The notes under the pieces were generated by a model. The model was not told the origin of the DNA. It was given only the letters and a program-made list of their open reading frames with translations, and made no database searches. Of a DNA stretch of 64,000 bases, positions 23,826 through 42,816 are shown one piece after another. Made by a program: the position numbers and the translations under genes. How positions within the stretch are numbered: the first letter of the stretch is position 1; the number at the start of each line of letters is the position of its first letter. This DNA comes from Candidatus Berkelbacteria bacterium (GTDB taxonomy: Bacteria > Patescibacteriota > UBA1384 > DTJR01): positions 338-64,337 of the forward strand of contig JAOUGE010000005.1 of the NCBI GenBank assembly GCA_029865605.1. The letters run 5' to 3'.

Positions 23826-23900
23826 GCGGGTGTCGTATAGCGGTTATTACACGTGCTTGCCAAGCACGAGAGGGCGGTTCAATTCCGCTCACCCGCTCCA
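23826..23900 (+). tRNA. tRNA-Gly (GCC)
   Basis: GCGGGTG paired with CACCCGC, anticodon loop CTTGCCAAG, T-arm GGCGGTTCAATTCCGCT, encoded TCCA. Confidence 0.85.
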
Positions 23901-24039
23901 ACGAGATGGCCTTTAGGCCATTTTTCGTTGGAGCACCCTGCCGAGAATTGAAGGCCGGACCCCGCCACGGCGGGGGAGGCGGGGTCGCGAAATTTACCAG
24001 CAGGTAAATATTTGTGACCAATTCCGCTCACCCGCTCCA
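23901..24039 (+). repeat. conserved structured element after a tRNA 3' end, copy 3
   Basis: Hairpin plus T-tract ATGGCC-TTTA-GGCCATTTTTCG, then GAGAATTGAAGGCCGG (antisense Gly T-loop), CCCCGCC-ACG-GCGGGGG, GAGGCGGGGTCGCGA, AAATTTACC-AGCA-GGTAAATATT, TGTGACC, and a 21-nt repeat CAATTCCGCTCACCCGCTCCA. Confidence 0.85.
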
Positions 24040-24044
24040 GCCAG

Positions 24045-24068
24045 AATCGCCGAAGGCGATTTTTTGTT
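24045..24068 (+). terminator. intrinsic terminator after element copy 3
   Basis: AATCGCC-GAAG-GCGATT followed by TTTTTGTTT. Confidence 0.6.
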
Positions 24069-24156
24069 TGTTAATTCTTGACTTATTTTGAAATAAAAAG
24101 TACTATTTTCTCTTAACCCATGAAGTCCCCGAAGATGGGTTCTTTATGGGTGATAT

Positions 24157-25038
24157 TTGACATTACATTCCGCGCCGCCCGCAGGGCGGCGCACCAAGGA
24201 GGAACCGCTTTATGATTTACCCCGCCGAGGCGGACGGCCGCCGGTCAACGACGAGTGGCGAGTGGAGTACTGCGACGGCCTATGCTGCGGCGTCTCGGCG
24301 ACATACGAGTTGCACTGGGCACTGACCGGTAACTGCTTCGATATCGAAGCCGAGATCGTCCGCCACGTCGCTCTAGCAGACAAGAGCGACGAGGGGTGGG
24401 TAACCGTTCTGACTCGTACCGACGAGATCAGAGCATTGGCGGACAGCTCCGTCGCGCAGCTTGAACACATCAACCCGCTGGCGCCGGTCGGCTCGCGCGT
24501 CATCCTTCCGTGGCCGCGGGTTGACTGCGTCATCGACCGCGACGGAACGACGTCGCCTTACGCTAACCCCTTCGTCGAAGTCACGGGGGAAGCCCTGGCA
24601 GGCCGCAAGAAGGAGCACTGCTTCTTCACCCATATCCGGCCTGACGATGATGGCTGGGTGGCCGCGGCGCTTCAGGGTCCCAAGGGAACGGGGATCGGCG
24701 TGCGCTCCAAGTACGACAAGCGGTTGCCCTTCTTCTCTGTCTGGTTCTCCCGCACGGGCAAGAAGGGCGTGGCGGCAATCGGCCTTGAGCCGGGTCCACT
24801 GCCGCTCGGCGCGGCAGAGACAGATCGACTCGAGATGAGGGCTGTCCTCGAGGGGGGAGAGGAGATGACGCGCATGACTGAACTCTACTTCCTCGATACT
24901 TCCGAGAGGATGACAACCTTCCTCGAGAGCAACGGGATGAGCGCTGGCTCGCTTCCCAAGCAGTTCGAGAAGATCGGCACCGACAAGAAGGACTGGCCGA
25001 CGCTCTGCAGGGCGGCTGGTATCAACGGCAAGCGCTAG
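24157..25038 (+). CDS. hypothetical protein in a GC-rich island (start uncertain; the track start is TTG)
   Basis: Open frame of 293 aa at about 60%+ GC. A separate 38-aa ORF with a perfect AAGGAGG ribosome-binding site starts at 24203 in another frame (see findings). Confidence 0.4.
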   Translation: MTLHSAPPAGRRTKEEPLYDLPRRGGRPPVNDEWRVEYCDGLCCGVSATYELHWALTGNCFDIEAEIVRHVALADKSDEGWVTVLTRTDEIRALADSSVAQLEHINPLAPVGSRVILPWPRVDCVIDRDGTTSPYANPFVEVTGEALAGRKKEHCFFTHIRPDDDGWVAAALQGPKGTGIGVRSKYDKRLPFFSVWFSRTGKKGVAAIGLEPGPLPLGAAETDRLEMRAVLEGGEEMTRMTELYFLDTSERMTTFLESNGMSAGSLPKQFEKIGTDKKDWPTLCRAAGINGKR

Positions 25039-25090
25039 GGCGGCCGAAGGCCGCCCCGGATCTGATCACATCTGTGCGGGGGAACTCACT

Positions 25091-25246
25091 ATGCCGCGTA
25101 AGCCCCGCAAGGTTATCGAGGAAGAAAATGCGTGCGAGCGCCGCTCGCGCCCCAGGCGCTACGTCTCGGCCCGCTCTTATGTCCATCATAAGGATTGGGA
25201 AGACGGAGGCCGACGTAAGGCCAAAGGAAAGGAGCATTCCTGGTGA
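25091..25246 (+). CDS. possible small basic protein (51 aa) inside the GC-rich island, not in the ORF track
   Basis: ATG 25091 to TGA 25246 encodes MPRKPRKVIEEENACERRSRPRRYVSARSY.... It ends just before a strong terminator. The overlapping track ORF 25074..25304 reads through that terminator. Confidence 0.2.
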   Translation: MPRKPRKVIEEENACERRSRPRRYVSARSYVHHKDWEDGGRRKAKGKEHSW

Positions 25247-25261
25247 GCACACGCTCACCCC

Positions 25262-25305
25262 CACGGGCCCCGCCATTGGCGGGGCCCGAGTTGTTTTTGT
25301 TTAAT
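25262..25305 (+). terminator. intrinsic terminator closing the GC-rich island
   Basis: GGGCCCCGCC-ATTG-GCGGGGCCC followed by GAGTTGTTTTTGTTT. Confidence 0.6.
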
Positions 25306-25433
25306 TTTTTGCTGGAGACTAGAGCCTAAAAGACTAGAGACTATTTTCCCCCCAAACAAACCCCGAAAATTAACCAAGAAAATGGGGTTTACCCCTTGAC
25401 AAGGTATTTTTTTTAAGTACACTAGTTGGCGTT

Positions 25434-25667
25434 ATGTTGAAAGCATTCTCCATCATAGAGTTGGTCACCGCGGTTTCGCTTATTGCAGCTGTGCTTTTGC
25501 AGCACCGCGGGACGGGACTCGGCGGGGCGTTTGCGTCGGAAGCGAACGCCTTCAGATCAAAAAGAGGGATTGAAAAATTTCTTTATAACTCGACGATCAC
25601 CATCGCCATTGTTTTGTGTGCGACCGTCCTAGCGCATCTTTTCTTGCGCCTCAAGCTTTCGGCCTAA
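25434..25667 (+). CDS. secG: preprotein translocase subunit SecG
   Basis: 77 aa with two transmembrane helices and the central LLQ...GLGGAF...F motif. Confidence 0.65.
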   Translation: MLKAFSIIELVTAVSLIAAVLLQHRGTGLGGAFASEANAFRSKRGIEKFLYNSTITIAIVLCATVLAHLFLRLKLSA

Positions 25668-27341: not shown

Positions 27342-28178
27342 ATGGATCGAATTCCCTTTACCGTTACAATGCGCAAGGACCTTTTAAAAAGGGTCGATTC
27401 TTTAGTTGATGGCACGCAAATCAGAAATCGTTCCCACGCTCTTGAATCAATTGTTTCGAGCCATTTCAGGCCGAAGATTAAAAAAGCTCTTATCTTAGCC
27501 GGCGGCGAAGGGATTAAGATAAAGCCATTCACCTATGAGCTCCCCAAGACAATGCTGCCAGTTAAGGGACGGCCGATTTTTGAATACATCCTCGACCTGC
27601 TTCAGAAACAGGAGGTAAAAGAAATTTATGTAGCCATCGGCCATTTGGGCGGGAAAATCAAGGGGCAGTTTGGCGACGGGGCAAAGTACTCTGTGGATAT
27701 TACCTATCTTGAAGAAAAGGGTAGTCTCGGCACCGGCGGTGCCTTAAAGGCCGCTCTTCCCAAGATGGGCGACGACCCTTTCTTGATGATTTGGGGCGAT
27801 GAGTTGATTGATATTGATCTTGGGGACATGATTGATTTTCATATGACGCAAAAGCCGGTTATGACAATTGCCTTGACTTCTGTTTCTGACCCGACGGGCT
27901 ATGGGGCGGTCAAGCTAAGACGGGATATGGTTGTTGAACATATTGAGAAACCGGCAAAAACCAAGGATGTATCTCATCTTGTCAGTGCCGGCGTTCATGT
28001 TGTTGATCCGAGAATTGCCAGTTTTTTGCCTCGAAAGAAAACTTTTATGCTGGAAAGCGACATTATGTCTCAGCTGACTAAAAAAGGCCAGATCCGAGGT
28101 TATCTTTTTGAAGGACAGTGGTTTGATGTAGGAACTCCCGAAATTTACCAACGGGCAATAAGAGAGTGGAGAGGGTAA
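27342..28178 (+). CDS. sugar-phosphate nucleotidyltransferase with an N-terminal ribbon-helix-helix (CopG-like) domain
   Basis: Residues 1-45 FTVTMRKDLLKRVDSLV...RSHALESIV match the ribbon-helix-helix pattern. Then KALILAGGEGIKIKP...LPKTMLPVKGRP gives the nucleotidyltransferase G-loop. Confidence 0.6.
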   Translation: MDRIPFTVTMRKDLLKRVDSLVDGTQIRNRSHALESIVSSHFRPKIKKALILAGGEGIKIKPFTYELPKTMLPVKGRPIFEYILDLLQKQEVKEIYVAIGHLGGKIKGQFGDGAKYSVDITYLEEKGSLGTGGALKAALPKMGDDPFLMIWGDELIDIDLGDMIDFHMTQKPVMTIALTSVSDPTGYGAVKLRRDMVVEHIEKPAKTKDVSHLVSAGVHVVDPRIASFLPRKKTFMLESDIMSQLTKKGQIRGYLFEGQWFDVGTPEIYQRAIREWRG

Positions 28179-29240: not shown

Positions 29241-29443
29241 TCGCGTATGTCCTCATCTGCCAGAAAAGGTAGATGTGGAGACGCGATTTGACGGGGGCGG
29301 CAGGTCGATAACCTGAGAACCTGCCGACAAGAATCGAAACGCGCAGGCTCGACGGAGCCGAGCGGGGGTCGCGAGGCCCGCCAGCAGGCGGGAACTTGTG
29401 ACCGATTTCCTGCCTGCCGGCAGGCAGGTGTCCCTCTGCACCA
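29241..29443 (+). repeat. conserved structured element, copy 6, in tandem after copy 5, with a non-cognate tail
   Basis: Contains AGAATCGAA (antisense Phe T-loop again), GAGCGGGGGTCGCGAGGCCCGCC-AGCA-GGCGGGAACTTGTGACC (identical over 36 nt to copy 4). It ends in a palindrome CCTGCCTGCC/GGCAGGCAGG plus GTGTCCCTCTGCACCA, which is not the Phe 3' end. Confidence 0.7.
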
Positions 29444-29469
29444 CTTACCCCGCATGAGCGGGGTTCAAT

Positions 29470-29943
29470 GTGAAATTAAAAATGCAAAACGTCACGGCTT
29501 TTTTGGGTGAAATATTCAGCTTTTTCAAAGAAAAAGTTTTTGATTTTGAGAAGTTTTTTAGTTGGGGTTATCTTAATGCGTCAGCGTCCACAATTCTCCG
29601 GTATTGGATAGTTTACGTCGTGATTTTTGCTCTTTTAATAGTGGTCGGACTATTTATTCAGTTTTATTTTGGGCGCAAAACCCTGCCGAAATTCAGAAAA
29701 AAATTTTATAAGCGTTTGGGCGACTTTCTCGTTTACCCGCCGCTTGTTTATCTTTTTCTTATCACTGTAAGAAGGGCCGGGCTGGAAGGCTTGAATAAGA
29801 GGATTCTTCCAGTTTCTCTTGCGCTTATATGGTTGATTTGGCTGGGCTTTCTGGTATACTACAGAATAGCCGTTGTTTCAAAACTCCAAAAGATGTATTT
29901 GGAACAGCGGAGAAAGGAAAAATATATAAGAAATGGTAGTTAA
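29470..29943 (+). CDS. hypothetical polytopic membrane protein
   Basis: Four hydrophobic helices. 157 aa. Confidence 0.35.
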   Translation: MKLKMQNVTAFLGEIFSFFKEKVFDFEKFFSWGYLNASASTILRYWIVYVVIFALLIVVGLFIQFYFGRKTLPKFRKKFYKRLGDFLVYPPLVYLFLITVRRAGLEGLNKRILPVSLALIWLIWLGFLVYYRIAVVSKLQKMYLEQRRKEKYIRNGS

Positions 29944-31018
29944 ATCGAAGGATGTTACGGAAGAGAAGGCAGGACCAATGGACGCTCTGATCGAGGAACA
30001 CGACGGGGATTTGGTCCCTTTTAATGCTGGAGACGTTGTTGACTGCAAGGTGATTCAAGTTTCTCGCTCCAGAGTCTTATGTGATGTGGGCGGTTTAACC
30101 TATGGCTTTGTACCGGAAAAAGAATTTTCCTTTGACACAAAGGATTTAAAGCCCGGCGATGTTATCTCGGCTAATGTGATGGCAATGGAAAACAAAGACG
30201 GCTATGTTGTTTTGAGCCTTCGGCGTGCCGATAGAAATCGTCTTTGGGGAGTCTTGACTGAGAAGAAGGACAAAGGCGTCTTGGTTGATGTCAAGGTTGT
30301 TGGTGCCAATCGCGGAGGACTGATGGTTGAAGCCGGCGGGATTCAGGGCTTTTTGCCGGTCTCCCAGCTTTCGGTTGAGCACTATCCTCGGGTTGAAGGC
30401 GGCGATCCCAACCAGATCTTACAGAGACTAAGGAAGCTGGTAGGCGAGGCTCTTCAAGTGAAGATAATCTCCGTAGATAAAAATGAGGAAAAGCTGATTT
30501 TTTCTGAAAAACAGGCGGTTAGCGAGTCGATCGGCGACCTTGGCGAGCAATTTAGCGTTGGTCAGGTGGTCGAAGGCACGATAACCGGCATCGCTCCGTT
30601 TGGCCTGTTTGTAAATCTCGGCGGCATCGAAGGTTTAATTCATATTTCGGAGGTTTCTTGGGATCATGTTGATGACTTGTCGGGGATGTACAAGGTAGGG
30701 CAGAAAGTCAAGGCGAAGGTAGCAAAGATTGAAAATGGGCGGATATCCCTCTCGCTTAAGAGACTCTTGCCTGATCCTTGGATTGAAGAGATGAAAAAGC
30801 TGAAAGTCGGTGAGAAAGTTGAGGGAGAGATAACCAGAGTTACTGCCTATGGCGCCTTCGTCAGGTTGAAGAATAATTTAGATGGTTTGGTCCATGCCTC
30901 TCAAGTTGGGGGAGATGTTGCTAAGATTAAGGCATTACAGGTTGGTGACAAGAGGCGATTTGAGGTTATCGAGTTGAAGCCGGAGTCCCGAAGAATAGGG
31001 TTGAGGCTTTTAGAATAA
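29933..31018 (+). CDS. rpsA: 30S ribosomal protein S1 (four S1 domains)
   Basis: Repeated S1 motifs (G.V.G.V..I...G.FV.L....G..H.S....). 361 aa. Confidence 0.75.
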   Translation: MVVKSKDVTEEKAGPMDALIEEHDGDLVPFNAGDVVDCKVIQVSRSRVLCDVGGLTYGFVPEKEFSFDTKDLKPGDVISANVMAMENKDGYVVLSLRRADRNRLWGVLTEKKDKGVLVDVKVVGANRGGLMVEAGGIQGFLPVSQLSVEHYPRVEGGDPNQILQRLRKLVGEALQVKIISVDKNEEKLIFSEKQAVSESIGDLGEQFSVGQVVEGTITGIAPFGLFVNLGGIEGLIHISEVSWDHVDDLSGMYKVGQKVKAKVAKIENGRISLSLKRLLPDPWIEEMKKLKVGEKVEGEITRVTAYGAFVRLKNNLDGLVHASQVGGDVAKIKALQVGDKRRFEVIELKPESRRIGLRLLE

Positions 31019-31162
31019 TGCGGAGGGCTAAAATGCCCGGAAAGTTTGGAAAATAGCGCTTCTGTCCGCTTAAAGGGGTGGATAGGGCGCTGTTTTCAAA
31101 GGCAAGCAGCTTGACATTAAACCCGCTTCAGCGGGTCAAGTGCCTGTAAGGAGGCCGCTAAG

Positions 31163-33031
31163 ATGCGCCCGAAACTGGTAGTAGTTCTTACTGTCTTTGC
31201 GGCCGCGCTAGCGGCCGCCACGGTTAACGCAGACGTCGTCGTGGCCATTCATGGCCACTCGAACTTCTCGGATGGTATGAAGCCCCTGCGCGAGACGTAC
31301 GTCGAAATGTGCTCGGGCGGGGCCGAGGTGGCGATCGTAACCGACCATACCGAGGTGATCGATCTGCCGCAGATTCCCGCTTCTTTTCTCAAGATGGAGT
31401 TTGCCAGGTACAGCCATTGGGAAATGGCTTCTGGCGCACTCCTGAAGGAGGCGGGACTGGCCAACTGGAAGGCGGCCTACCGGAGTCTCCAGACCGAGAG
31501 GGTGGTAGTGATCCCGGCAATGGAGGTCGGGCTAGTAGCCCGAAAGACGGATGCGTTGTGGGATCGCCGCTGCCACTTCCTGTTCATCGGCGGGTCGGTC
31601 GAGGATAACACCTACGATCAAGTGATGCAGTGGGCATCGGCCTATACCACCGAGAAAGGGGCGGTGGAATGTCTCAAGAAACTCACCGCCCTGGCACAGG
31701 AGCGCGGTGCGTTGCTTGTTGCTGCTCATCCAACTAACTCAGGCTGGCTGATAGACTCTAGCCTTCTTGAGTTGGTGAACGGGATTGAGGCAATGAATCA
31801 CGATCTCCTCCCTGGCGCCAGCATAAGAGGAGATACTCCCGAGAACCTCCTCAAGACAATGCCGGCGGTTCCTTCTTCCCCTGTGGTAACGGCGGGGCTG
31901 GACTGGCACGGTGTCATCGGCCAGTCGGGATTCAGGGACATTTTCCGGCGCTTCACTGTCGTCCTGACAGACGAGAGGACACCAACGGGAATTGTGGGCG
32001 CTCTTCAAGCGCGGCGAAGTTATGCCGCTCTCGGCGACGCTCGGATCACCCGCGGCAAGGAGCTCATCGGCGGCGAGGTCGGCTTCGACCAGCCGTTTGA
32101 GATGGGCTTCGAGGGGGTAAGGGGCAACAAGGCCTGGCTCGTCTGCCGCTCGAGCGATAGTGCCTACCGCGAGTTCAAGCCAGTCTCGCTTAAGAGCGGC
32201 ACTCTCAACATCAAGAACCTCGGGAAGGCCCTGGGGCCAGCGATGACGTCCGGCGGCTGGATCGTCGTTGCTGCCCCTGCTGGCACGCCCCAGATCATCA
32301 CCTCCGGCATCAAGGTCAATCCGGCCGAAGCCGGCGGTGGCGAACCCTCCTTCGTCTTCTACGACAAGCCGCTCGGCCCTGGACAGCTGGCTAGGCCCAA
32401 GAAACCTGGCTTCTGGGATCAGGTCCGAGGGGGGCTGGGAGATATCGTTGCGGGAGCGCTCTCCGGTGGGATGGATCTACCTGGGATGCGCATCCGCATT
32501 ACTCCGGGCAGTAGCATGCCGGGCGAAGGCATACCGCAAGTGCCAGCCGGGGGCACAGTACCCCAGGGCGGGCAGGCCGGGCTCGGTGAGGATTTCAGCA
32601 ACTGGCCGATGGAGTATAGCGGGGTGCACCCCACCGCGCGGGGACAAACCCGCGATCAGGTTGTAGCGACCCTCTACGTGAACCCAGAGGCGCAGCAGGG
32701 GCTGCTTGCGTTCCAACTCAACGATCTGCAGCAGCAGATCCCAGTTACGCTGCCCGGCGTGTTCGGTAACGGAGGCTTCTGGCGATCCTCTTGGCAGTCG
32801 AAGCTCCCGTCTCGTCCGAGGTTTATGCATCCCCAACCCAGTTCACTCGGGGGGGGTCCGCGACCTGCCTGCCTTGAGGGTTGGCATCTCGGTCACAGTT
32901 ACAGGGATAAGAACGACCCCGCTACATACCACTTCGATCTGACTCTTAGAGCCCTTGCCGATGTACCTGAGCGTGTGCCTGTCGCGGTAGGGTACTGGGA
33001 GATGCGCATGGAGCTTCTCCGCGTCCGCTAG
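31163..33031 (+). CDS. secreted PHP-domain (polymerase/histidinol-phosphatase-like) protein with a Pro/Gly-rich C-terminal region, encoded in a GC-rich island
   Basis: AAGGAGG ribosome-binding site. Signal peptide MRPKLVVVLTVFAAALAAATVNA. PHP motif IHGHSNFSDG...VTDH...AAHP. About 60%+ GC against about 43% around it. Confidence 0.55.
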   Translation: MRPKLVVVLTVFAAALAAATVNADVVVAIHGHSNFSDGMKPLRETYVEMCSGGAEVAIVTDHTEVIDLPQIPASFLKMEFARYSHWEMASGALLKEAGLANWKAAYRSLQTERVVVIPAMEVGLVARKTDALWDRRCHFLFIGGSVEDNTYDQVMQWASAYTTEKGAVECLKKLTALAQERGALLVAAHPTNSGWLIDSSLLELVNGIEAMNHDLLPGASIRGDTPENLLKTMPAVPSSPVVTAGLDWHGVIGQSGFRDIFRRFTVVLTDERTPTGIVGALQARRSYAALGDARITRGKELIGGEVGFDQPFEMGFEGVRGNKAWLVCRSSDSAYREFKPVSLKSGTLNIKNLGKALGPAMTSGGWIVVAAPAGTPQIITSGIKVNPAEAGGGEPSFVFYDKPLGPGQLARPKKPGFWDQVRGGLGDIVAGALSGGMDLPGMRIRITPGSSMPGEGIPQVPAGGTVPQGGQAGLGEDFSNWPMEYSGVHPTARGQTRDQVVATLYVNPEAQQGLLAFQLNDLQQQIPVTLPGVFGNGGFWRSSWQSKLPSRPRFMHPQPSSLGGGPRPACLEGWHLGHSYRDKNDPATYHFDLTLRALADVPERVPVAVGYWEMRMELLRVR

Positions 33032-33060
33032 GCCAGCAGGCCGAGCGGACCTGAACTCAA

Positions 33061-33090
33061 GGGGGCCCTCACGGGCCCCCTTCGACGTTT
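33061..33090 (+). terminator. intrinsic terminator after the PHP-protein gene
   Basis: GGGGGCCC-TCAC-GGGCCCCC followed by TTCGACGTTT. Confidence 0.5.
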
Positions 33091-33144
33091 GCGCCAAGGC
33101 GCTATTTTTGCTAGAATAAGACCTCAATCAAATTAAAAAAAGCG

Positions 33145-33624
33145 ATGCAAATTCAAAAGAACAAAGATGGGAATCTCGAGATAAAGTCTAAAAAAGCCAC
33201 CGTTGTGTTTGATGGAAAGGTTGTCGTAAATGATGTTGAGCTTGAAGGTGCGGGCGAATATGAAGTTGGAGAGATTGCAATCGAAGGGATTGACGACGAC
33301 ATTTATATTTTTCAAATCGAGGATGTTGTCTTGGGTTCGGTCAATTTCAAATCTAAGATTACTAAGGAAAATGTCGAAAGATTGGCCAACTGCGACGCGG
33401 TTTTAGTGCGGCTTGACGGCAAAGTTCATGAGGCGGTAGAGCAGGCCGGGCAAATTCAGCCGGACACCATAATTTATGCCGGGACTTCTCGATCGGCAAC
33501 AGAGCTTAAATCAAGCGGGGTTTCTTTTACAAAATCGGATTCGATTAAACTAAGCAAGGCGGATATTGGACAGGAAAAATCGTATTTCCTCGAACTAGCA
33601 GATGGTAATGGTCAAAACCTTTGA
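33145..33624 (+). CDS. hypothetical acidic protein
   Basis: 159 aa. Overlaps the nrnA-like gene downstream. No recognisable motif. Confidence 0.35.
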   Translation: MQIQKNKDGNLEIKSKKATVVFDGKVVVNDVELEGAGEYEVGEIAIEGIDDDIYIFQIEDVVLGSVNFKSKITKENVERLANCDAVLVRLDGKVHEAVEQAGQIQPDTIIYAGTSRSATELKSSGVSFTKSDSIKLSKADIGQEKSYFLELADGNGQNL

Positions 33625-34570
33625 GAAGATCCTAGCTGTTTTCGAAAAATCTGAGAGGGTTTTGATTCTGCTGCACCTTTATCCAGACGGAGATACTGTG
33701 GCGTCGTCCTTGGCTCTGGCGACTTTTCTGAAAAGGAGAGGCATACTTGCTGATTGCGCAGTTAGAGGGGAAATACCCAAGCCCTTTCATTTCTTGCCCG
33801 GCGTTGATTCTATCAGGCATGATTTTCTACTCGGCGATTATGATGTAGTCGTCGCTGTTGATTGTGGTGATGCCCAGCGCACCGGTTTTCCGGTCCGTCT
33901 TGAGCAGATTTGCAAATCAAGAACATTTATTAATATTGATCATCACAACAAAAATAACTTGCATAGAATTGCTAAGATAAATCTGGTTGACAAGGGGGCT
34001 TCTGCGGCAGCAGAAATTATCTGGGACTTTTTAAAATTTGCCGGAGCGGAAATTGACAGCAAGATGGCGACATATATTTTGTCGGGGATATATTTTGACA
34101 CGGGCGGATTTCAACACTCGAACGTTACGACAAGAACTCTTGAAGTGGCATCGGATTGCTTGCGCCTTGGGGCAAGAATTTCAGCGATAACGGCGAATAT
34201 AAATGGAACGAAAACTTCATCAGCATTGAAGCTTTGGGGAATGGCACTGAAGAGGATGAGAATAAGCAGAAGTGGTATAGCAAGTTCTATTTTAACCCAG
34301 GAGGACTTAAAGGTTTGCCGGGCGAAAGCTGAAGATGCTTCAGGAGTTGTTAATTTGATAAGCTCGGTGCCTCAAGCCAAGCTGGCAATCTTGTTCTTAG
34401 AGAATCCTGATGGTAAAATTAAAGCCAGCTTGCGGACTGATTCGGTCAAGGTTGATGTGGCTCAATTCGCTCGTCTTTTCGGCGGCGGAGGGCACAAAAA
34501 AGCAGCTGGGTTTACAATAGAAGGGAAGCTGGTTGAAAAAACCGGAAAGTGGGGGATAGCGGAGGGGTGA
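33602..34570 (+). CDS. DHH/DHHA1 phosphoesterase (NrnA-like oligoribonuclease/pAp phosphatase)
   Basis: Motifs HLYPDGDTVASS, DCGD, DHHNKN, and a C-terminal GGGH (DHHA1). Confidence 0.7.
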   Translation: MVMVKTFEKILAVFEKSERVLILLHLYPDGDTVASSLALATFLKRRGILADCAVRGEIPKPFHFLPGVDSIRHDFLLGDYDVVVAVDCGDAQRTGFPVRLEQICKSRTFINIDHHNKNNLHRIAKINLVDKGASAAAEIIWDFLKFAGAEIDSKMATYILSGIYFDTGGFQHSNVTTRTLEVASDCLRLGARISAITANINGTKTSSALKLWGMALKRMRISRSGIASSILTQEDLKVCRAKAEDASGVVNLISSVPQAKLAILFLENPDGKIKASLRTDSVKVDVAQFARLFGGGGHKKAAGFTIEGKLVEKTGKWGIAEG

Positions 34571-34577
34571 AGAATCT

Positions 34578-34663
34578 GGGCGAGTGGTGGAATGGTATAC
34601 ACGTTGGACTTAAAATCCAATGGTCGCAAGACCATGTGGGTTCGAATCCCACCTCGCCCACCA
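34578..34663 (+). tRNA. tRNA-Leu (TAA), type II
   Basis: GGGCGAG paired with CTCGCCC, anticodon stem-loop TTGGA-CTTAAAA-TCCAA, variable arm, T-arm TGGGTTCGAATCCCA, ACCA. Confidence 0.85.
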
Positions 34664-34782
34664 GGTTGTTTTTTGGTGAACAGGGGGGATTCGAAAGCCG
34701 GACCAGCCCAGGGCTGGGAGACGGGGTCGCACAAAAATTCAGCAGAATTTTATGAGTGACCGAATCCCACCTCGCCCACCAG
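34664..34782 (+). repeat. conserved structured element after a tRNA 3' end, copy 7
   Basis: Starts GGTTGTTTTTTGGTGAA, as copy 2 does. Then GGGGGATTCGAAAGCCGG (antisense T-loop), CAGCC-CAG-GGCTG, GAGACGGGGTCGC, AAAAATTC-AGCA-GAATTTT, GAGTGACC, and a 30-nt repeat CGAATCCCACCTCGCCCACCAGGTTGTTTT. Confidence 0.85.
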
Positions 34783-34829
34783 GTTGTTTTCGGTAGCCTA
34801 TCGTTTAACATTAAATCTGAAGGAGGCAA

Positions 34830-35069
34830 ATGGCAGAAACTAGTGCAAGGAGTCTAACCAAGGCGATTAGCTGGCGTATTTTTGCCACCATTGCCACGGT
34901 GATTATAGTTTATGTTTTTACTGGGGAGTTAATTTTATCCTTGGGCGTTGGCTTGGCCGATATTCTTATAAAGCTGGTCCTTTATTATTTTCATGAGAGG
35001 ATTTGGAACTGCGTAAAATTTGGTAGAGTTGGCGAAAAGTCTGACGGACAAAAGAGAACACCCTACTAG
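34830..35069 (+). CDS. small membrane protein (DUF2061-like)
   Basis: 79 aa with two transmembrane helices. The WRI...FHERIWN pattern is typical of DUF2061. Confidence 0.4.
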   Translation: MAETSARSLTKAISWRIFATIATVIIVYVFTGELILSLGVGLADILIKLVLYYFHERIWNCVKFGRVGEKSDGQKRTPY

Positions 35070-35070
35070 T

Positions 35071-35601
35071 TTATTTAGGAATTTTCTCTAGTACTTCGTA
35101 CAAGATTATTCCTGTTGCGGTAGCGACATTTAGACTGTTTGCACGACCGTGCATTGGGAGCTCAACAGTTAGATCTGCCAGTTTAAGCACGTCATTTGTA
35201 ATTCCCCTCAATTCGTGTCCGACGACAACCGCCACCGGCGCTTCGTATTTAGCTTTTTTAAAATGAATCGAATTATCGGTCTGTTCAAGGCAGACAATCC
35301 GGACCCCCTTTTCTTTTAGTTCTCTCACTGCCTGGATGGCTTTTTTGCGATATTCCCAATCAACCCACTCAACCGCCCCAAGCGAGGTCTTAAATATTTT
35401 TTCTCTTGGCGGCTGGGCGGTGATACCGCAGAGATAAATTTTTTTTGCCCTTACCCCATCGGCCGTGCGAAACATTGCGCCCACATTGTACATTGAGCGG
35501 ATATTGTCTAATACCAAATAGATCTCGTTTCTTGGGGCGGATTTGAGTCGTCTTATTCCTCCCTTGAGCTTGATGTTTTGCTTCGCCGTTCGTTTTTTCA
35601 T
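35071..35601 (-). CDS. SpoU/TrmH family RNA 2'-O-methyltransferase
   Basis: SPOUT motifs YNVGAMFRTADG, LGHE, ANSLNVATA. 176 aa. Confidence 0.7.
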   Translation of the reverse strand: MKKRTAKQNIKLKGGIRRLKSAPRNEIYLVLDNIRSMYNVGAMFRTADGVRAKKIYLCGITAQPPREKIFKTSLGAVEWVDWEYRKKAIQAVRELKEKGVRIVCLEQTDNSIHFKKAKYEAPVAVVVGHELRGITNDVLKLADLTVELPMHGRANSLNVATATGIILYEVLEKIPK

Positions 35602-35681
35602 ATTGGGTTAGAATACCATAAATTCCTATCCTGTTGAACCCCTTGTTGGTTTTTTTTCATAATTACGCTAAACTTATACTA

Positions 35682-36401
35682 ATGAGAAGAAGAGTAACCC
35701 AAATCATTATAGTGGTGCTGGTGTTGTCTGTTGTGGGATTTGGCGCCTATCGTTTTTTACCCCAGATTATTGCTGACGAGGCCTACCCACTCGAGTATAT
35801 TGGCGAAATAAACCAATGCGCTGACGCCTTCGGGCTCGATAAACCGCTTTTGGCCGCTTTAATCTTAAAAGAATCGGGCTATAACCCCAGAGCTCAATCG
35901 CACGCTGGGGCAATGGGTTTGACTCAAGTAATGCCGGCAACTTTTCGGGCCAATGTCGGCAAAATGGGCGAAATTCAAGGTATTATCGAAAATCAGGACC
36001 CCTGGGATCCCAAGACGAATATTTGTGTTGGTGCCGGAATCTTAGCCGGATTGATGGCAAAATACGGTGGCGACTGGACGGCGGCCCTGATTGCTTATAA
36101 TGGTGGTGACGGGGCGGCGAGGAGATATTTGGCAGCCAAGTCAACTGCCGTTTTGGTTACGGAAACCCGCCTTTATGCGCCGAAGATACTGGCCGCCCGA
36201 GATGTTTATGCCACGATGTACGCCGATAGGTTTACCGGCTCATATCCCCCGACTGGCGGTGGAATATTCCTCGGCGGCGGCACGGTCGGAGGGGGGGCAC
36301 CGAGCTTGATTTCTGTTCCGGTTTCAAAGCCATCGGAGAAAGCTAGAGAATTTTGGAAAGGGTTTGCTAAAGATGTCTTCGCCAGATTTTTCTCCACATA
36401 G
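35682..36401 (+). CDS. lytic transglycosylase (SLT domain) with N-terminal membrane anchor
   Basis: SLT catalytic region ES.YNP.A.S.AGA.GLTQVMP.TF. Start set at the Met preceding the transmembrane helix. Confidence 0.65.
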   Translation: MRRRVTQIIIVVLVLSVVGFGAYRFLPQIIADEAYPLEYIGEINQCADAFGLDKPLLAALILKESGYNPRAQSHAGAMGLTQVMPATFRANVGKMGEIQGIIENQDPWDPKTNICVGAGILAGLMAKYGGDWTAALIAYNGGDGAARRYLAAKSTAVLVTETRLYAPKILAARDVYATMYADRFTGSYPPTGGGIFLGGGTVGGGAPSLISVPVSKPSEKAREFWKGFAKDVFARFFST

Positions 36402-38238
36402 TCTAAGAGAGAAGTTTTTAAAGTTCTTTGAGCAAAGGGGTCACAGGGTGATCCCGCCTTCGTCTTTAGTGCCGGAAAACGACCCAACTGTCCTATTTAC
36501 CACTGCGGGGATGCACCCTCTTATTCCCTACTTAATGGGCGAAAAGCACCCGGAAGGGAAGCGTCTGGTCAATATTCAACCCTGCTTGCGTACAGACGAC
36601 ATTGATGAGATAGGCGACACCTACCATCACACTTTTTTTGAAATGCCTGGTAATTGGTCGCTTGGTGATTATTGGAAAGAAGATGCAATCAAATGGAGCT
36701 GGGAATTTTTAACTGAAGAACTAAAAATCGATAAAAATAAAATTGCAATTAGCTGTTTTGCTGGAGATGGGAATGCGCCCCGCGATGATGAATCGGCGAA
36801 TGTATGGAAATCTCTGGGCGTTAGCAAAAAAAGAATTAAGTTTTTGGGCAAGAAGGACAACTGGTGGGGACCAGCCGGCCAGACCGGACCCTGCGGACCG
36901 GACACGGAAATGTTCGTTTGGGCTGGAGACGGCGAGCCGCCGGAAGAATTTGCCGGTCCGGAGGATATTCGGTGGGTTGAAGTCTGGAATGATGTTTTTA
37001 TGGAGCATGACAAGCAGGCAGACGGGACTTTTAAAGAACTGAATCAAAAAAATGTCGATACGGGAATGGGGTTTGAAAGGATGCTAGCTGTTCTAAACGG
37101 CGCAGACGATGATTATAAAACTGAATTATTTTGGCCAATAATCCAAAAGATAGAGGAAATTTCAGGCAAAAAATATGGGGAAAGGTCTGATCAAGAATAT
37201 ATTGATACTGGCGATCAATGCTGGGTTAACACGAGAAGGTCATTCAGGATTATTGCTGACCATATCAAAGCAGCGGTTTTTATTCTAACCGAAGGAATTA
37301 CCCCTTCAAATAAACTGCAGGGTTATGTCTTGCGCCGGCTAATAAGACGAGCGGTTGTTAAAGGACAAAACTTAGGGATGAAAGATGATTTTACCTCAAA
37401 GTTAGCTAGCGCAGTTATCGAAATATACAAGGATAGGTTTCCTCGTCTTAAAAAAGCGCAGATGGTAATTGGGGCGGGATTGGAAGAGGAAGAAGTAAAA
37501 TTTAGAAAAACGCTGGATGAGGGGCTGAAACAGTTTGAGAAGAAACTGGGCGGCTTTGGTTCAGCAGCATTTGGGCGGGCTGCATTTGGGGCTGGTGGGG
37601 TAAAGAAGACAATTGATGGGCAGAAGCTATTCGATCTTTACCAAACTTATGGCTTTCCCCTTGAGTTATCGCTAGAATTAGCAAAAGAGAAGGGTACTCC
37701 CTTGTCGGAAAAATATCAGGACGAATTTAATAAGGAATTTGAGAAACATCAAGAAATATCTCGCGCGGGAATAGGTGCTTTCAGGGGCGGACTGGCCGAC
37801 GCAAAAGAGGAAACAACTAAGCTTCATACTGCTGCCCATCTTTTGCACTCAGCGTTACGAAAAGTTCTGGGGGAGCATGTTTTGCAAAAGGGCTCAAATA
37901 TTACAGCCGAGCGATTGCGTTTTGATTTTTCGCACCCCGATAAATCGACCGAAGAACAGATTAAAAAAGTCGAGGATTTGGTCAACGAGCAAATCCAAAA
38001 AAATCTTCCGGTTGAAATGGAAGAAATGTCAGTTGACGAAGCTAAAAAATCCGGTGCGCTCGGCGTTTTCGACGAGCGCTACGGCAACAAGGTCAAAGTA
38101 TACACAATAGGCAACTTTTCAAAAGAAATCTGCGGCGGCCCGCACGCCAAATCAACCGGCGAGTTAGGAACTTTTAAGATTACCAATGAAATGTCCTCTT
38201 CGGCAGGAATTAGAAGAATTAAAGCGGTTTTAGAGTAA
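36373..38238 (+). CDS. alaS: alanine--tRNA ligase (catalytic, tRNA-recognition and editing domains; no C-Ala domain)
   Basis: Class II motifs FTTAGM, the HHTFFEMPGNWS region, and editing-domain HxxxH...CGGPH (HTAAHLLHSAL...CGGPHA). Confidence 0.85.
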   Translation: MSSPDFSPHSLREKFLKFFEQRGHRVIPPSSLVPENDPTVLFTTAGMHPLIPYLMGEKHPEGKRLVNIQPCLRTDDIDEIGDTYHHTFFEMPGNWSLGDYWKEDAIKWSWEFLTEELKIDKNKIAISCFAGDGNAPRDDESANVWKSLGVSKKRIKFLGKKDNWWGPAGQTGPCGPDTEMFVWAGDGEPPEEFAGPEDIRWVEVWNDVFMEHDKQADGTFKELNQKNVDTGMGFERMLAVLNGADDDYKTELFWPIIQKIEEISGKKYGERSDQEYIDTGDQCWVNTRRSFRIIADHIKAAVFILTEGITPSNKLQGYVLRRLIRRAVVKGQNLGMKDDFTSKLASAVIEIYKDRFPRLKKAQMVIGAGLEEEEVKFRKTLDEGLKQFEKKLGGFGSAAFGRAAFGAGGVKKTIDGQKLFDLYQTYGFPLELSLELAKEKGTPLSEKYQDEFNKEFEKHQEISRAGIGAFRGGLADAKEETTKLHTAAHLLHSALRKVLGEHVLQKGSNITAERLRFDFSHPDKSTEEQIKKVEDLVNEQIQKNLPVEMEEMSVDEAKKSGALGVFDERYGNKVKVYTIGNFSKEICGGPHAKSTGELGTFKITNEMSSSAGIRRIKAVLE

Positions 38239-38293
38239 AGCGACAGGGCGCCAGCGGCGCTGGCGCCCGTGGGGAGACAACGCAAGAATGGCT

Positions 38294-38503
38294 TCAGGCG
38301 GGGATAGGGCCTCGGTAGCCGGGGAAGATGCATCGAGAAGGCGGCCCGCCAAGAGCCCGAAGGGCCTCGTCATAGCGCTCAAGGTAACGCTCGTCTGCTC
38401 TTCGGAGCATTCTCTCGATCAGTGCTGGGTCATTACGGCGGCGCCTTCGGCGGCTGGTAGGCCCCTTCGTGGTCGTTGCCATTCCCATCACCTCCGAGAA
38501 CAT
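38294..38503 (-). CDS. hypothetical small Arg-rich protein in a GC-rich islet
   Basis: 69 aa with RRRRRR and helix-rich sequence. The coding call is weak. Confidence 0.2.
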   Translation of the reverse strand: MFSEVMGMATTTKGPTSRRRRRRNDPALIERMLRRADERYLERYDEALRALGGPPSRCIFPGYRGPIPA

Positions 38504-38524
38504 TATATCAGATGATGAGAGTGC

Positions 38525-39304
38525 TTAGGCAAAGTATTTTTCAACAAATAAACGGGCTTTTTTGAGGTTTGAGACTACCCTCTCGTCGCTTTGACCGGCA
38601 TCAACCGATTCGGGTACCAGTTCGATCACTATATAGCCCTGATATTTGAGCTCTTTTAGCTTTTTCAAAAATTCTTTAAGCGGCAGTTTGCCCTTGCCTG
38701 GCATGAGGTGGCAATCAGCAATCAGCTTCGGGTTGTCTGGGCGGCGTCTAAAATCGCTGTCGGACAGGTGAACGTGAATTAGTTTGCCGATAATTTTATC
38801 TAGCGCCCCGAGCAAATCACCCTTTGTTGTTCCGAAATGGCTGGTGTCAAAAACGAGACTCGGGAACTGATTAAAAGACCTGACAGTGTGGTTAGGCCTC
38901 CTCGAAGTACTATTTTCAAAGGCAACTCTAAGCGGTTTGGCCATTTTTATAATCGAATTTTTATTTTTTTTAACCCAAGCGAAAAAGCTCTCGTCCAAGT
39001 AATCGTGGGGATGAAAAACAATAATTTCCGCTTTGATTTCTTTGGCAATTTTGATGCTCTCTTCAAGCCTTTTTTTGGGATCGCCTCCCCAGCAGCCGGC
39101 GAATTCCATAGCCGAGTGGACCGACGGGATTTTCAATTTAAATTCTCTCATCAGCTGTTTAATGTAGGCTGGCTGCCTTTTATCCCAGCAATCATCAATT
39201 ACCAACTCAACGCCGGAATAGCCGGCTTTTTTTGCCAGCTCAAAAGTCCGGTTTAAGCCGTAATTGTATAGTGTGCCTGTGCCTAAAAGAATTCGGTTTT
39301 TCAT
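38525..39304 (-). CDS. sugar phosphate isomerase/epimerase (xylose-isomerase-like TIM barrel) family protein
   Basis: 259 aa with conserved His/Glu/Asp positions (FHPHD, HVHLSD, ELVPE) typical of the AP-endonuclease-2/TIM-barrel family. Confidence 0.5.
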   Translation of the reverse strand: MKNRILLGTGTLYNYGLNRTFELAKKAGYSGVELVIDDCWDKRQPAYIKQLMREFKLKIPSVHSAMEFAGCWGGDPKKRLEESIKIAKEIKAEIIVFHPHDYLDESFFAWVKKNKNSIIKMAKPLRVAFENSTSRRPNHTVRSFNQFPSLVFDTSHFGTTKGDLLGALDKIIGKLIHVHLSDSDFRRRPDNPKLIADCHLMPGKGKLPLKEFLKKLKELKYQGYIVIELVPESVDAGQSDERVVSNLKKARLFVEKYFA

Positions 39305-39370
39305 TTCTTAAACATTATAATGTTTTTTCAAAATCTGGAAAGTGGTAGAATAATTAAAGGAGGATGACCT

Positions 39371-42394: not shown

Positions 42395-42816
42395 TATTAG
42401 AGGGAAGAACAGTCCTTGCTCTTGATGTTGGAGAAAAAAGAATCGGAGTTGCGCTCTCGCACGGGGTAGTTGCCGAGGGGTTTGGCGTTTTGGATTTTAG
42501 AAAAGACAAACCCGAAGAAACGATCGCCAAAATCAAAAATATAATCTCCGAGCAGAAGGTTGATAAGATTGTCATCGGCTTGCCTCTCGGGCGCGATGGC
42601 AAAGAGACTGCCCAGAGCCAAAAAATTAGAGCTTTCACCGCTAACCTTGAAGGGGCACTGGGGCTCGAGTGTGATTTTGTTGAGGAGTCTTATTCCACCG
42701 TCGAAGTTGAAAGGGAGCAGGAGAACCTTAAAGAAAAAGGCAAGCTTAAGTCGCTCGATGTAGATGCCGAAGCGGCAAGAGTTATTTTGGAGCAATATTT
42801 ACAAGAGAATGAATGA
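42391..42816 (+). CDS. ruvX: Holliday-junction-resolvase-like nuclease YqgF/RuvX
   Basis: LALDVGEKRIGVA and IVIGLPL...DG motifs. Confidence 0.8.
   Translation: MILEGRTVLALDVGEKRIGVALSHGVVAEGFGVLDFRKDKPEETIAKIKNIISEQKVDKIVIGLPLGRDGKETAQSQKIRAFTANLEGALGLECDFVEESYSTVEVEREQENLKEKGKLKSLDVDAEAARVILEQYLQENE

Follow-up and report, generated by a model that had tools for sequence, protein, structure and literature searches.

The window analyzed here, a 64-kb stretch of DNA from Candidatus Berkelbacteria bacterium, carries on its forward strand a 622-amino acid open reading frame (31163..33031), annotated at NCBI as hypothetical protein OEV37_02230, whose product is a predicted secreted member of the PHP family. 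Its upstream neighbor encodes a 361-amino acid, rpsA-like S1-domain ribosomal protein (29933..31018, +; Pfam S1), and downstream follow open reading frames for a 159-amino acid protein (33145-33624, +) and a DHH/DHHA1 phosphoesterase (33602-34570, +), both of normal composition. An earlier note on this DNA had described a GC-rich, compositionally atypical block of about 2 kb in this position, between rpsA and housekeeping genes, and all three points hold. Among all 2-kb segments of the sequence, GC peaks in the one that starts at 31001 (0.604, against a median of 0.461). The PHP gene itself has a GC content of 0.614 against a background of 0.46 and shows codon periodicity in GC (0.65/0.48/0.71 at the three positions). 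Its GC3 of 0.71 compares with 0.42-0.51 in the flanking genes and exceeds by about 6 MAD the median of the 66 open reading frames in the window (0.465, MAD 0.04).

The rpsA-like gene appears to end in an intrinsic terminator (31049..31097, +), a long hairpin that has an A-run on its 5' side and ends 3' in UUUUC. The region 31019-31165 folds at -65.5 kcal/mol (z = -5.0), with a terminator scan match at 31060-31087, and the hairpin (aaaaacagcgc...gcgctgttttt) is also found upstream of PHP orthologues. Because of this terminator, the PHP gene can be regarded as a separate transcription unit. The intervening leader contains the hexamer TTGACA (31111..31116, +), a small hairpin (ACCCGC-UUCA-GCGGGU; 31121..31136, +), and a ribosome-binding site, AAGGAGG, whose last base lies 8 nt from the ATG (31148..31154, +). 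Several orthologues have hairpins at the equivalent position, and AAGGAG(G) precedes most of them. The TTGACA hexamer recurs at the matching relative position in about 14 of about 21 orthologous loci (by eye, two gene-less loci counted in), and could represent a -35-like hexamer or an operator. Of the expression signals listed in the earlier note, the ribosome-binding site and the GC-rich terminator are both borne out, and the promoter-like sequence is present and recurrent as a hexamer, but it has no acceptable -10 hexamer downstream, and a promoter scan made no call at this site.

The 3' end of the gene carries three GC-rich hairpins followed by TATTTTT (33021..33109, +), with a folding energy of -55 kcal/mol (z = -5.1) over the hairpins at 33021-33102. 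The first overlaps the PHP stop codon, the second has a perfect 10-bp stem (33059-33082), and the third spans 33091-33102; strong GC-rich hairpins lie 3' of every PHP orthologue. An Rfam search with the leader and the 3' end returned nothing meaningful. At the right border of the slot lies TGCTAGAAT (33109..33117, +), a predicted extended -10-type element that probably serves as the promoter of the 159-aa and DHH genes; TGCTAnnAT-like motifs upstream of the 159-aa gene are conserved in related loci. Together, the TTGACA element, ribosome-binding site, coding sequence, and hairpin terminator form a predicted autonomous transcription unit, bounded by the terminator of rpsA on one side and by the next operon's promoter on the other. 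The sequence TAGAATAA, which occurs at both ends of the block, was considered as a target-site duplication and rejected, since one copy is accounted for by the stop region of S1 and the other by the -10 element of the downstream promoter.

Architecture of the predicted exported protein

The open reading frame of 622 codons was as the earlier note had given it, and its N terminus is likewise in line with the signal peptide proposed there. Residues 1-24 (MRPKLVVVLTVFAAALAAATVNA|D; 31163..31234, +) read as a signal peptide with the layout MRPK / LVVVLTVFAAALAAA / TVNA|D, and the mean Kyte-Doolittle hydropathy of its core (residues 5-20) is 2.5. N-terminal hydrophobic segments are present in nearly all of 29 aligned family members (by eye), and the best reading of the sequence is that the protein is predicted to be exported via Sec.

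The signal peptide is followed by a predicted PHP-fold metal-dependent phosphoesterase domain (residues ~25-300; 31235..32062, +). The motif HGHSNFSDG, which the earlier note had taken as its hallmark, is present, and both the family profile and the fold search point to PHP phosphoesterases. In an alignment of 29 sequences, the columns H30, H32, D37, H62, E121, H138, H189, and D247 do not vary, with H249 conserved in at least 90%; we take these nine residues to be the nine PHP ligands of YcdX-type sites. Solved PHP enzymes bind three metal ions. In the AlphaFold model, pLDDT exceeds 90 across most of residues 25-390, and its top Foldseek matches are 2anu, 3e38, 3o0f, and 7ug9 (E 1e-8 to 9e-6, with 2anu at 1e-8; probability 1.0). 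The family profile matches solved PHP structures at E values of 1e-16 to 4e-5 (3e0f 1e-16, 2anu 2e-12, RNase AM 9etk 8e-9). The window protein stays below the gathering score of Pfam PHP (PF02811), with 14.3 bits (E 0.05) against 26.4; the syntenic orthologues P0006 (32.0 bits) and P0007 (30.5) and the homologue P0003 (27.2), carried by a bacterium of high GC, all lie above it. The full ligand set of PF02811 (H-x-H, D/H, H, E, H, H, D-x-H) is found in the window protein, and the model predicts a PHP fold, a distorted beta/alpha barrel, for residues ~25-300. The best NCBIfam match is the CehA/McbA metallohydrolase family (NF038032; E 3e-5, residues 30-292), but the score of 23.6 bits falls short of the 80-bit cut-off for membership. 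A second match of the family HMM within the window, at 57193-58908, was considered as a paralogue and rejected, being PolX with its own PHP domain.

Beyond the PHP domain lies a beta-sandwich (residues ~300-390; 32063..32332, +) that is conserved together with it across the family; its strands are modeled confidently, and family HMMER matches stop near residue 390. A Gly/Pro-rich linker of low pLDDT (residues 391-480, G 24%, P 12%; 32333..32602, +) then leads to a variable, beta-rich C-terminal module (residues 481-622, ending ...MELLRVR; 32603..33028, +), which is the portion that lineages exchange and whose strands are modeled at low confidence. The Pro/Gly-rich C-terminal half described in the earlier note thus applies to residues 391-480 and not to the remainder. 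A G8 run at 32849-32856 in the C-terminal module occurs in this genome only, and phase variation through this tract was rejected on that ground.

Several solved enzymes share the PHP fold and the ligand pattern H-x-H ... H ... E ... H ... H ... D-x-H with the window protein: TM0559 (2anu), BAD_1165 (3e0f/3o0f), Cv1693 (2yb1), and RNase AM/YciV (7ug9, 9etk). These are cytoplasmic, single-domain proteins of ~220-300 amino acids with 13-18% identity to the window protein, which adds a signal peptide, beta-sandwich, Gly/Pro linker, and swappable C-terminal module and which, unlike them, has an Asp (D37) as its third ligand. Going by the titles of the PDB entries, RNase AM acts as a 5'-3' exoribonuclease, and the crystallized form of Cv1693 had Mn, AMP, and phosphate bound. 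The order of a PHP domain followed by a beta-sandwich is shared with BVU_3505 (3e38), a two-domain PHP-like protein of Bacteroides vulgatus (408 aligned columns) whose title gives no function; neither 3e38 nor NF038032 has the linker and variable C-terminal module. With only 32 of the 1.84 billion cluster representatives searched matching at E<=1e-3, calling a secreted PHP phosphoesterase unusual, as the earlier note did, is fair. Searches of the literature turned up no report of a secreted PHP protein from CPR bacteria.

A long-term resident of the slot downstream of rpsA

Related loci were located through the flanking S1 protein; W denotes the locus of the window, and L-numbers the related loci. 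The slot, in the order rpsA, X, 159-aa gene, DHH gene, holds a PHP-family member in 19 non-redundant related genomes of Berkelbacteria type, which come from independent studies and whose S1 proteins are 63-98% identical (carriers: W, L003, L005, L007, L011, L013-L017, L025, L028, L034, L037, L038, L040-L042, L044, and L063). The rpsA-like S1 protein forms the conserved left border, with 63-74% identity to the S1 proteins of related loci, the 159-aa and DHH/DHHA1 genes are syntenic across all of these loci, and the matching arrangement recurs across more than 20 independent assemblies. Every PHP copy in the slot has a high GC3 (0.53-0.75).

The slot can also hold other genes, namely, a GC-rich C39-like peptidase in L029 and CHAP proteins, which show no GC excess, in L018 and L048; in a distant low-GC clade, it is occupied by a low-GC PHP homologue (L052). 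It is empty in L036, L049, and L050. L036 lacks the PHP gene but keeps the leader up to TTGACAAT, TTGACA included, and it is nested among PHP carriers as the sole empty site within the clade. To judge from the sequence, its empty slot is a secondary loss or deletion.

The best non-self match to the protein is 48% identical and lies on a contig of similarly mixed composition. Family members occur in bacteria of 67-69% GC, and the high-GC bacterial homologues are 33-34% identical to W, a value equal to that of its nearest syntenic orthologue. L009 and L062, homologues carried by non-CPR bacteria of high GC, nest inside the family, without support, and an ancient high-GC origin of the family is therefore possible. 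Supported PHP subclades match S1 relatedness (L016/L044/L037, L015/L040, L011/L028, L003/L042, and L005/L038/L041). Between PHP and S1 identities, the Mantel rho is ~0, with most pairs saturated, and because of this saturation congruence at depth is not demonstrable.

Rates of change were compared in the two closest informative pairs, L043/L044 and L011/L028. The synonymous rate of the PHP gene equals that of its flanks (dS 0.585 against 0.47 for S1 and 0.335 for the 159-aa gene in L043/L044; 1.31 against 1.31 for S1, 1.12 for DHH, and 0.70 for the 159-aa gene in L011/L028), whereas amino acid substitution is about 10 times faster (dN 0.21 against 0.016-0.026 and 0.18 against 0.016-0.035, respectively). 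From an S1 dS/dN of ~30-80 in close pairs and an S1 dN of 0.196 between W and L007, we infer that synonymous sites have each undergone several substitutions since the split between W and its nearest sampled relative; amelioration would therefore be complete. Across the 19 genomes, in which background GC3 spans 0.31-0.48, PHP GC3 follows the host background with a slope of 0.98 (r 0.70, p 9e-4) and a logit shift of 1.03 +/- 0.17, and the shift in the distant low-GC homologue L052 is -0.04. Tracking of the background at a constant offset is the behavior of a resident at equilibrium, not of an un-ameliorated import.

PHP modules are replaced blockwise by recombination with divergent alleles. L043 and L044 share ~90% DNA identity up to PHP codon ~453, followed by 575 bp that are unalignable, and ~90% identity resumes at the terminator and continues onward. 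L014 and L038 are 53% identical in the C-terminal part and 30% in the N-terminal part, and the N-terminal part of L038 is 52% identical to that of L041. A diversity-generating retroelement or cassette mechanism was considered and rejected: the 64-kb window contains no repeat of the island, and near-identical strains, with 0-2 differences within the PHP gene, show no excess over the flanks.

The earlier note had interpreted the composition as consistent with recent horizontal acquisition. On such a view, foreign DNA of 2 kb, donated by a GC-rich organism and still un-ameliorated, would lie between rpsA and the next operon. The atypical GC and GC3, the gene's own expression signals, the relatives in 67-69% GC bacteria, and the three empty slots would fit such an event. 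However, the same family fills the slot in 19 diverged genomes, close pairs show the same dS for the gene as for its flanks, its GC3 rises and falls with the host background at a slope of about 1, the empty slot of L036 keeps its leader and is nested among carriers, and the homology search proposed for finding the donor lineage yielded no donor-like close homologue, the nearest being 48% identical. We consider recent acquisition highly improbable; the PHP gene is a long-term resident of the slot across the Berkelbacteria-type CPR clade. Among the hallmarks of a genomic island, atypical composition and codon usage were found, and patchy presence, younger age or disequilibrium, and mobility signatures were not: no integrase, transposase, or mobility genes are among the genes called within +/-10 kb, and the block is flanked by short chance-like matches only. 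A phage origin was also rejected, with no PHROGs match and no viral-contig match to the protein's peptide patterns. Suspicion of a chimeric assembly, which the earlier note had named as a refuting outcome, or of a chance open reading frame, might arise from the metagenomic source of the contig and the scarcity of stop codons in GC-rich DNA, but an artifact is excluded: a Logan assembly of SRR7132115 matches 29376-43031, both junctions included, at 100% identity, and the ENA contig at 99.99%, the arrangement recurs among independent assemblies, GC follows codon periodicity, the catalytic residues are conserved with a confident structure model, and open reading frames in alternative frames are not in excess. 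Repeated import is a different matter, in that the slot could be a replacement hotspot fed from a GC-rich external pool, for example, the host bacteria, such that composition would mirror the donors of imported genes or modules. Its variable content (PHP, C39-like, CHAP, or empty), the blockwise replacement of modules, the lack of correlation between PHP and S1 identity at depth, and high-GC homologues as near to W as its closest syntenic orthologue all speak for this. Yet the conserved PHP parts share the dS of the flanks, a GC3 slope of 0.98 against the resident background is not expected of imported DNA, well-supported PHP subclades agree with S1 relatedness, and donor-like close homologues are absent among 1.84 billion representatives, and we regard recurrent import as unlikely. 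Atypical GC is routinely taken as a sign of recent transfer in annotation; at the PHP locus this rule misleads, and comparative synteny together with dS reveals why.

The GC excess and its possible causes

Our preferred interpretation, held with moderate confidence, is that of a resident gene for a hypervariable, predicted secreted phosphoesterase, with a GC excess that GC-favoring fixation bias keeps at equilibrium. The constant offset of +1.0 log-odds argues for equilibrium-like behavior under such a bias, and a population-scaled strength of ~1 would hold the gene at its higher GC3. Because spacer GC is near background, the excess is confined to the coding sequence. With an ENC of 50.4 against 53.2 expected from GC3, there is no codon bias beyond composition, and translational codon selection was rejected since ENC is as GC3 predicts. 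An overlapping or antisense gene behind the GC richness was likewise rejected, as the stop-free runs of alternative frames in 19 orthologues stay within what synonymous shuffling predicts.

As for the source of the bias, frequent recombination at the locus could lead to GC-biased gene conversion and, through it, to the GC excess, and a recombination-linked bias is our leading guess for the cause. Selection on the PHP transcript could be an alternative source. The more far-reaching version, in which a clade-wide, gene-specific GC-favoring bias acts on a small class of module-swapping, accessory exported hydrolase genes and the locus is a recombination hotspot with a stable "micro-isochore" (through gene conversion or some other targeted process), is tentative; if true, no recombination-GC effect so far described in bacteria would come close to its strength. 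The resident gene could instead owe its high GC to natural selection that acts, without recombination, on the coding transcript or its translation, for example, through the stability or structure of the mRNA, protection against AU-specific ribonucleases, or a slowed translation of a hydrolase that is exported and potentially harmful. This would suit an excess seen only in the coding sequence, the strongest depletion at third positions falling on A, and the nature of other GC-rich genes in these genomes, for the most part hydrolases that are likewise exported or anchored in the membrane (Amidase_3, Peptidase_C39_2, and signal-peptide proteins). It sits poorly, however, with the lack of codon-specific bias, with the normal GC3 of other exported proteins in the window (e.g., 21112-22578 and an SBP_bac_5 protein), and with the L052 homologue and slot CHAP proteins that have no GC excess; we know of no mechanism of this type that shifts GC3 by 25 points, and the explanation appears doubtful. 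Under the preferred interpretation, the gene has kept its +1 log-odds GC3 offset in 19 lineages despite repeated synonymous turnover and module swaps, which makes it a clean natural test of recombination-linked GC bias versus selection on bacterial composition.

Bias from gene conversion would be expected to spread into the spacers, yet these look normal; this objection is weakened because the spacers carry AT-rich signals of their own. For recombining compared with non-recombining bacterial genes, the reported gap is said to be only a few GC3 points, against ~25 points at the PHP gene. Recombining bacterial core genes are described in PMC4450053 as having higher GC3, mostly through non-optimal GC-ending codons. 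The PHP locus resembles them in its mosaic recombination, high GC3, and absence of codon-specific bias, but its effect of ~25 points is confined to a single gene and is constant in 19 lineages. In Borrelia, vls has a G+C content of 49.1% against ~28.6% for the genome, and the excess, conserved across species, has been read as maintained and linked to gene conversion (PMC11499132). Like the PHP gene, vls of Lyme-disease Borrelia is a fast-diverging gene for an exported protein, with G+C ~20 points above an AT-rich genome. Of the features of vls-type cassette variation, high G+C is shared, whereas the coding-strand GC skew of 0.52 and the silent cassette arrays have no counterpart here: the GC skew of the PHP gene is ~0-0.1, the 64-kb window holds no other copies or cassettes related to the island, and, unlike vls, the gene shows no excess variation in near-identical strains.

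Predicted function and modular variation

The protein can be pictured as a modular exported enzyme, in which a PHP domain with a full metal-ligand set and a beta-sandwich would be joined by a flexible linker to a variable C-terminal module. From these features, it probably hydrolyzes phosphoester bonds outside the cell. Candidate substrates would be nucleotides or oligonucleotides destined for salvage or, alternatively, envelope polymers of a host that contain phosphodiester linkages. To our knowledge, none of the Berkelbacteria-type organisms with this slot has been cultured. For CPR biology, the locus suggests a variable "secreted hydrolase slot" after rpsA, predicted to hold a PHP, CHAP, or C39-like protein, and its hydrolases are candidates for a host interface or a nutrient-scavenging route.

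The C-terminal module may bind the target and be under diversifying selection. In its conserved N-terminal part and sharply bounded, non-homologous C-terminal module, the protein resembles polymorphic toxins and phage receptor-binding proteins. Unlike in polymorphic toxins, the downstream gene is conserved, not variable, and is therefore not immunity-gene-like, and in some pairs replacement extends to the N-terminal enzymatic part as well. Other family members carry alternative C termini, among them TPR and VWA domains and a repeat-rich end that resembles a beta-propeller by eye.

The resident gene behind rpsA

The GC-rich island that the earlier note had placed after rpsA is real and unusual: the mean GC of the window is ~0.46, and the highest-GC 2-kb segment of the whole 64 kb (0.604) starts at 31001. 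An ORF on the plus strand (31163..33031, 622 aa; here called the PHP gene) occupies this block, and NCBI lists its product, from a Candidatus Berkelbacteria MAG, as a hypothetical protein. Its 5′ neighbor encodes a 361-aa S1-domain (rpsA-like) protein, referred to as S1, and on the 3′ side lie a 159-aa gene and then a DHH/DHHA1 gene. GC by codon position is 0.65/0.48/0.71 in the PHP gene, against a GC3 of 0.42–0.51 in neighboring genes, which places its GC3 ~6 MAD above the median of the 66 ORFs of the window. High GC3 is maintained from end to end, as expected of real coding sequence.

An assembly artefact, including the chimerism raised in the earlier note, is ruled out by the Logan assembly of run SRR7132115, which is 100% identical over 29376-43031, both junctions of the island included. 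The ENA contig differs from the window at 2 positions in 21.9 kb (27623 and 27642), far from the island; both differences fall inside an NTP_transferase gene (27342-28178).

With S1 as the query, we collected related loci from species-representative genomes and metagenomes. A family member occupies the slot behind S1 in 22 loci (19 non-redundant), whose S1 proteins are 63–98% identical among themselves; the homologues P0006, P0007, P0033, and P0018 stand in the same order of S1, PHP gene, ~158-aa gene, and DHH gene in other genomes. All slot copies are GC-rich, with a GC3 of 0.53–0.75 vs local backgrounds of 0.31–0.48. Substitution rates were measured in the two closest informative pairs of loci. 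In L043/L044, dS is 0.585 for the PHP gene and 0.47 and 0.335 for its flanks, with dN at 0.21 and 0.016–0.026, respectively; in L011/L028, dS is 1.31 for the PHP gene and 1.31, 1.12, and 0.70 for the flanks, with dN at 0.18 and 0.016–0.035. Hence, dS of the gene matches that of its surroundings, while its dN is ~10 times higher. Given an S1 dS/dN of 30–80 in these pairs and an S1 dN of 0.196 between the window genome and its nearest carrier, L007, we infer that synonymous sites have been replaced several times since these two split, so that an imported composition would have decayed. Well-supported PHP subclades still track S1 relatedness. In L036, which is nested among carriers, the slot is empty and the leader hairpin and TTGACAAT are retained (6081-6285), indicating secondary deletion of the PHP gene. 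The recent horizontal acquisition proposed in the earlier note was thus a misreading of the history: the gene, found in the same slot in 19 non-redundant genomes with dS equal to its flanks, is a resident, autonomous, and clade-wide gene that encodes a predicted exported modular PHP-fold protein.

In L029, a GC-rich gene for a predicted secreted C39-like peptidase follows S1, and the contig ends beyond it. A distant sister clade of very AT-rich genomes (S1 44–52% identical to that of the window) has variable slot content. The slot is empty in L049 and L050, where the 159-aa gene begins at, or directly after, the S1 stop. It holds predicted secreted CHAP proteins in L018 (8216-9979) and L048 (5917-7707), one of which also has Big_5, and in L052 (5509-7401) a PHP-family homologue with a repeat-rich C terminus, beta-propeller-like by eye; all three genes have native low GC (shift -0.04 in L052), and their products are ~590–630 aa long. 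The position after S1 looks like a general "secreted hydrolase" slot. Record titles of several public MAGs with the Berkelbacteria-type block (L011, L012, L014, L015, and L018) read "uncultured Candidatus Saccharibacteria bacterium" or, in one case, "candidate division WS2"; these taxonomic labels look unreliable.

Family members are also carried by bacteria with a uniform GC of 67–69% (L009 60-1277 and L062 3053-4798). One of these two homologues, of 405 aa, is without the C-terminal module and adjoins a GH5 cellulase; in the other, PHP is fused to VWA. The two fall among the Berkelbacteria sequences, with no bootstrap support for this placement; transfer in one or the other direction has hence occurred.

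Protein architecture and module replacement

The N terminus of the protein is shaped like a Sec signal peptide, as in other family members. A search of 1.84 billion cluster representatives (E ≤ 1e-3) returned only 32 matches, spanning residues 1 to ~390. Within a 29-member alignment, H30, H32, D37, G38, H62, E121, H138, H189, and D247 are invariant and H249 nearly so; judged by sequence, this His/Asp/Glu set is the PHP metal-site pattern. Against Pfam PHP, the window protein falls short of the threshold, which three members of the family (including two syntenic orthologues) exceed. AlphaFold, run with the alignment, gives a pLDDT >90 for most of residues 25–390 and low confidence beyond. Foldseek matches this fold to the PHP phosphoesterases TM0559, BVU_3505 (PHP plus beta-sandwich), BAD_1165, and RNase AM, and a sequence search with the family profile recovers these proteins as well (E 1e-16 to 4e-5). 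A Gly/Pro linker follows (residues 391–480; G 24%, P 12%), after which residues 481–622, in the low-confidence region of the model, would form a beta-rich module. The 622-aa protein is a new, predicted secreted, modular variant of PHP phosphoesterases. Just one further PHP-domain gene was detected in the window; it encodes a DNA polymerase X (57193-58908, plus strand) with HhH, polymerase-beta thumb, and PHP domains, and is of normal composition.

The predicted enzyme would act on extracellular phosphoester bonds. Judged from PDB titles, its nearest relatives of solved structure have nucleotides or short RNAs as substrates; the following operon encodes a DHH/DHHA1 phosphoesterase; and other slot occupants and other GC-rich islands of related genomes are cell-wall hydrolases (CHAP, C39-like, and Amidase_3). 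Two roles are therefore plausible: nucleotide salvage, and attack on a polymer of a host envelope.

Comparison of relatives reveals differences in blocks. DNA of L043 and L044 is ~90% identical from S1 across the spacer and on to PHP codon ~453; the following 575 bp, the C-terminal module, are unalignable, and ~90% identity is back from the terminator onward. L014 and L038 (S1 96%) have the C-terminal module in common (53%) but differ in the N-terminal enzyme part (30%), that of L038 being closer to L041 (52%). The window protein and its closest homologue, P0002, have only residues 6–387 in common (48%), and the C terminus of P0002 consists of TPR repeats. Recombination thus exchanges modules of the gene and makes it a mosaic, with fast point substitution in addition: it evolves fast and by module replacement.

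We also looked for specific mechanisms. Hypermutation was rejected, as near-identical strains have no SNP excess in the PHP gene. A G8 run in the C-terminal module (32849-32856) is absent from all 22 orthologues checked and hence is not a conserved homopolymer tract; it could permit frame-shifting in this strain. Neither DGR-like nor cassette copies of the gene were found within the 64-kb window, nor were flanking repeats or mobility genes found around it. Phage origin was discarded, with neither PHROGs nor viral-contig matches, and no known RNA family was found at the locus.

Signals around the gene

Downstream of the rpsA stop, an A-run/hairpin/U-run terminator (31049-31097; fold z = -5.0) is followed by TTGACA (31111-31116), a small hairpin, and AAGGAGG (31148-31154) before the ATG. 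AAGGAGG bears out the ribosome-binding site described in the earlier note, as do three GC-rich hairpins with TATTTTT 3′ of the gene (33021-33109; fold z = -5.1) its terminator. The promoter-like sequence holds in part: the hexamer is present and recurs at the equivalent position in most orthologous loci (~14 of ~21 in a by-eye count that includes two gene-less loci), but it has no acceptable -10 partner and a promoter scan calls none there. As TTGACA recurs and is retained even where the PHP gene has been lost, it is probably functional.

After the hairpins, upstream of the 159-aa/DHH operon, TGCTAGAAT (33109-33117) looks like an extended -10 element, because a motif of the TGCTAnnAT type recurs before the 159-aa gene in all relatives (TGCTAGAAT, TGCTACAAT, TGCTATACT, and TGTTATAAT among the examples). 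This suggests that extended -10 promoters are in use in this lineage. With a terminator upstream and the next promoter downstream, the PHP gene forms a self-contained transcription unit.

GC excess of the PHP gene and of other genes

In the 19 genomes, the gene has a logit(GC3) equal to that of the background plus 1.03 (sd 0.17; slope 0.98, r 0.70, p 9e-4). Under the standard mutation-fixation-bias model, such a uniform log-odds shift amounts to a GC-favoring bias of constant population-scaled strength (~1), added to the mutation bias of each lineage. In the window gene, codon bias is as expected from GC3 (ENC 50.4 vs 53.2); at third positions, both G3 and C3 are elevated, and A3 is down by half. 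As the flanking spacers have a GC close to background, the excess is limited to the coding sequence, which is at a GC equilibrium approximately one logit above the host.

We favor a GC bias that would be linked to recombination as the cause, since recombination at the locus is evident and the bias does not favor particular codons, fitting the pattern described for recombining bacterial genes (PMC4450053). Such a bias leaves the effect size and the sharp limit to the coding sequence unaccounted for, and selection on the transcript, holding the GC excess in place, is a serious rival. An overlapping ORF was rejected as the source of GC richness, with no excess over the synonymous-shuffle expectation. 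In composition, the locus comes closest to the vls cassette region of Borrelia, where 49% vs 28.6% G+C is maintained and linked to gene conversion (PMC11499132); vls has GC skew and silent cassettes, whereas the PHP locus has neither. What makes the locus interesting, and still calls for an explanation, is the stable, lineage-wide GC offset of a gene that recombines.

The window contains further GC-rich genes. A second island (23900-25500), directly after tRNA-Gly (23826-23900), holds a plus-strand ORF at 24157-25038 (293 aa, GC 0.63, GC3 0.78) with a weak DUF4432 match below cut-off (E 7e-7), no homologue beyond itself among 5.8 billion proteins, and no PHROGs match. A third GC-rich ORF (48476-49099, plus strand; 207 aa, GC 0.61, GC3 0.67) matches neither a Pfam nor a PHROGs family and lacks an obvious signal peptide. 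Other GC3-high genes in relatives, with logit shifts of roughly 1–1.8, lie at L007 2824-4761, L025 1356-3260, L015 5005-5529, L036 8473-8862, and L029 5043-6143. Most have signal peptides or membrane anchors, and among them are one Amidase_3 and one Peptidase_C39_2 protein as well as a family common to L007 and L025 at 32% identity. In this lineage, exported accessory hydrolases may form a class that is recognizable by its GC-rich genes.
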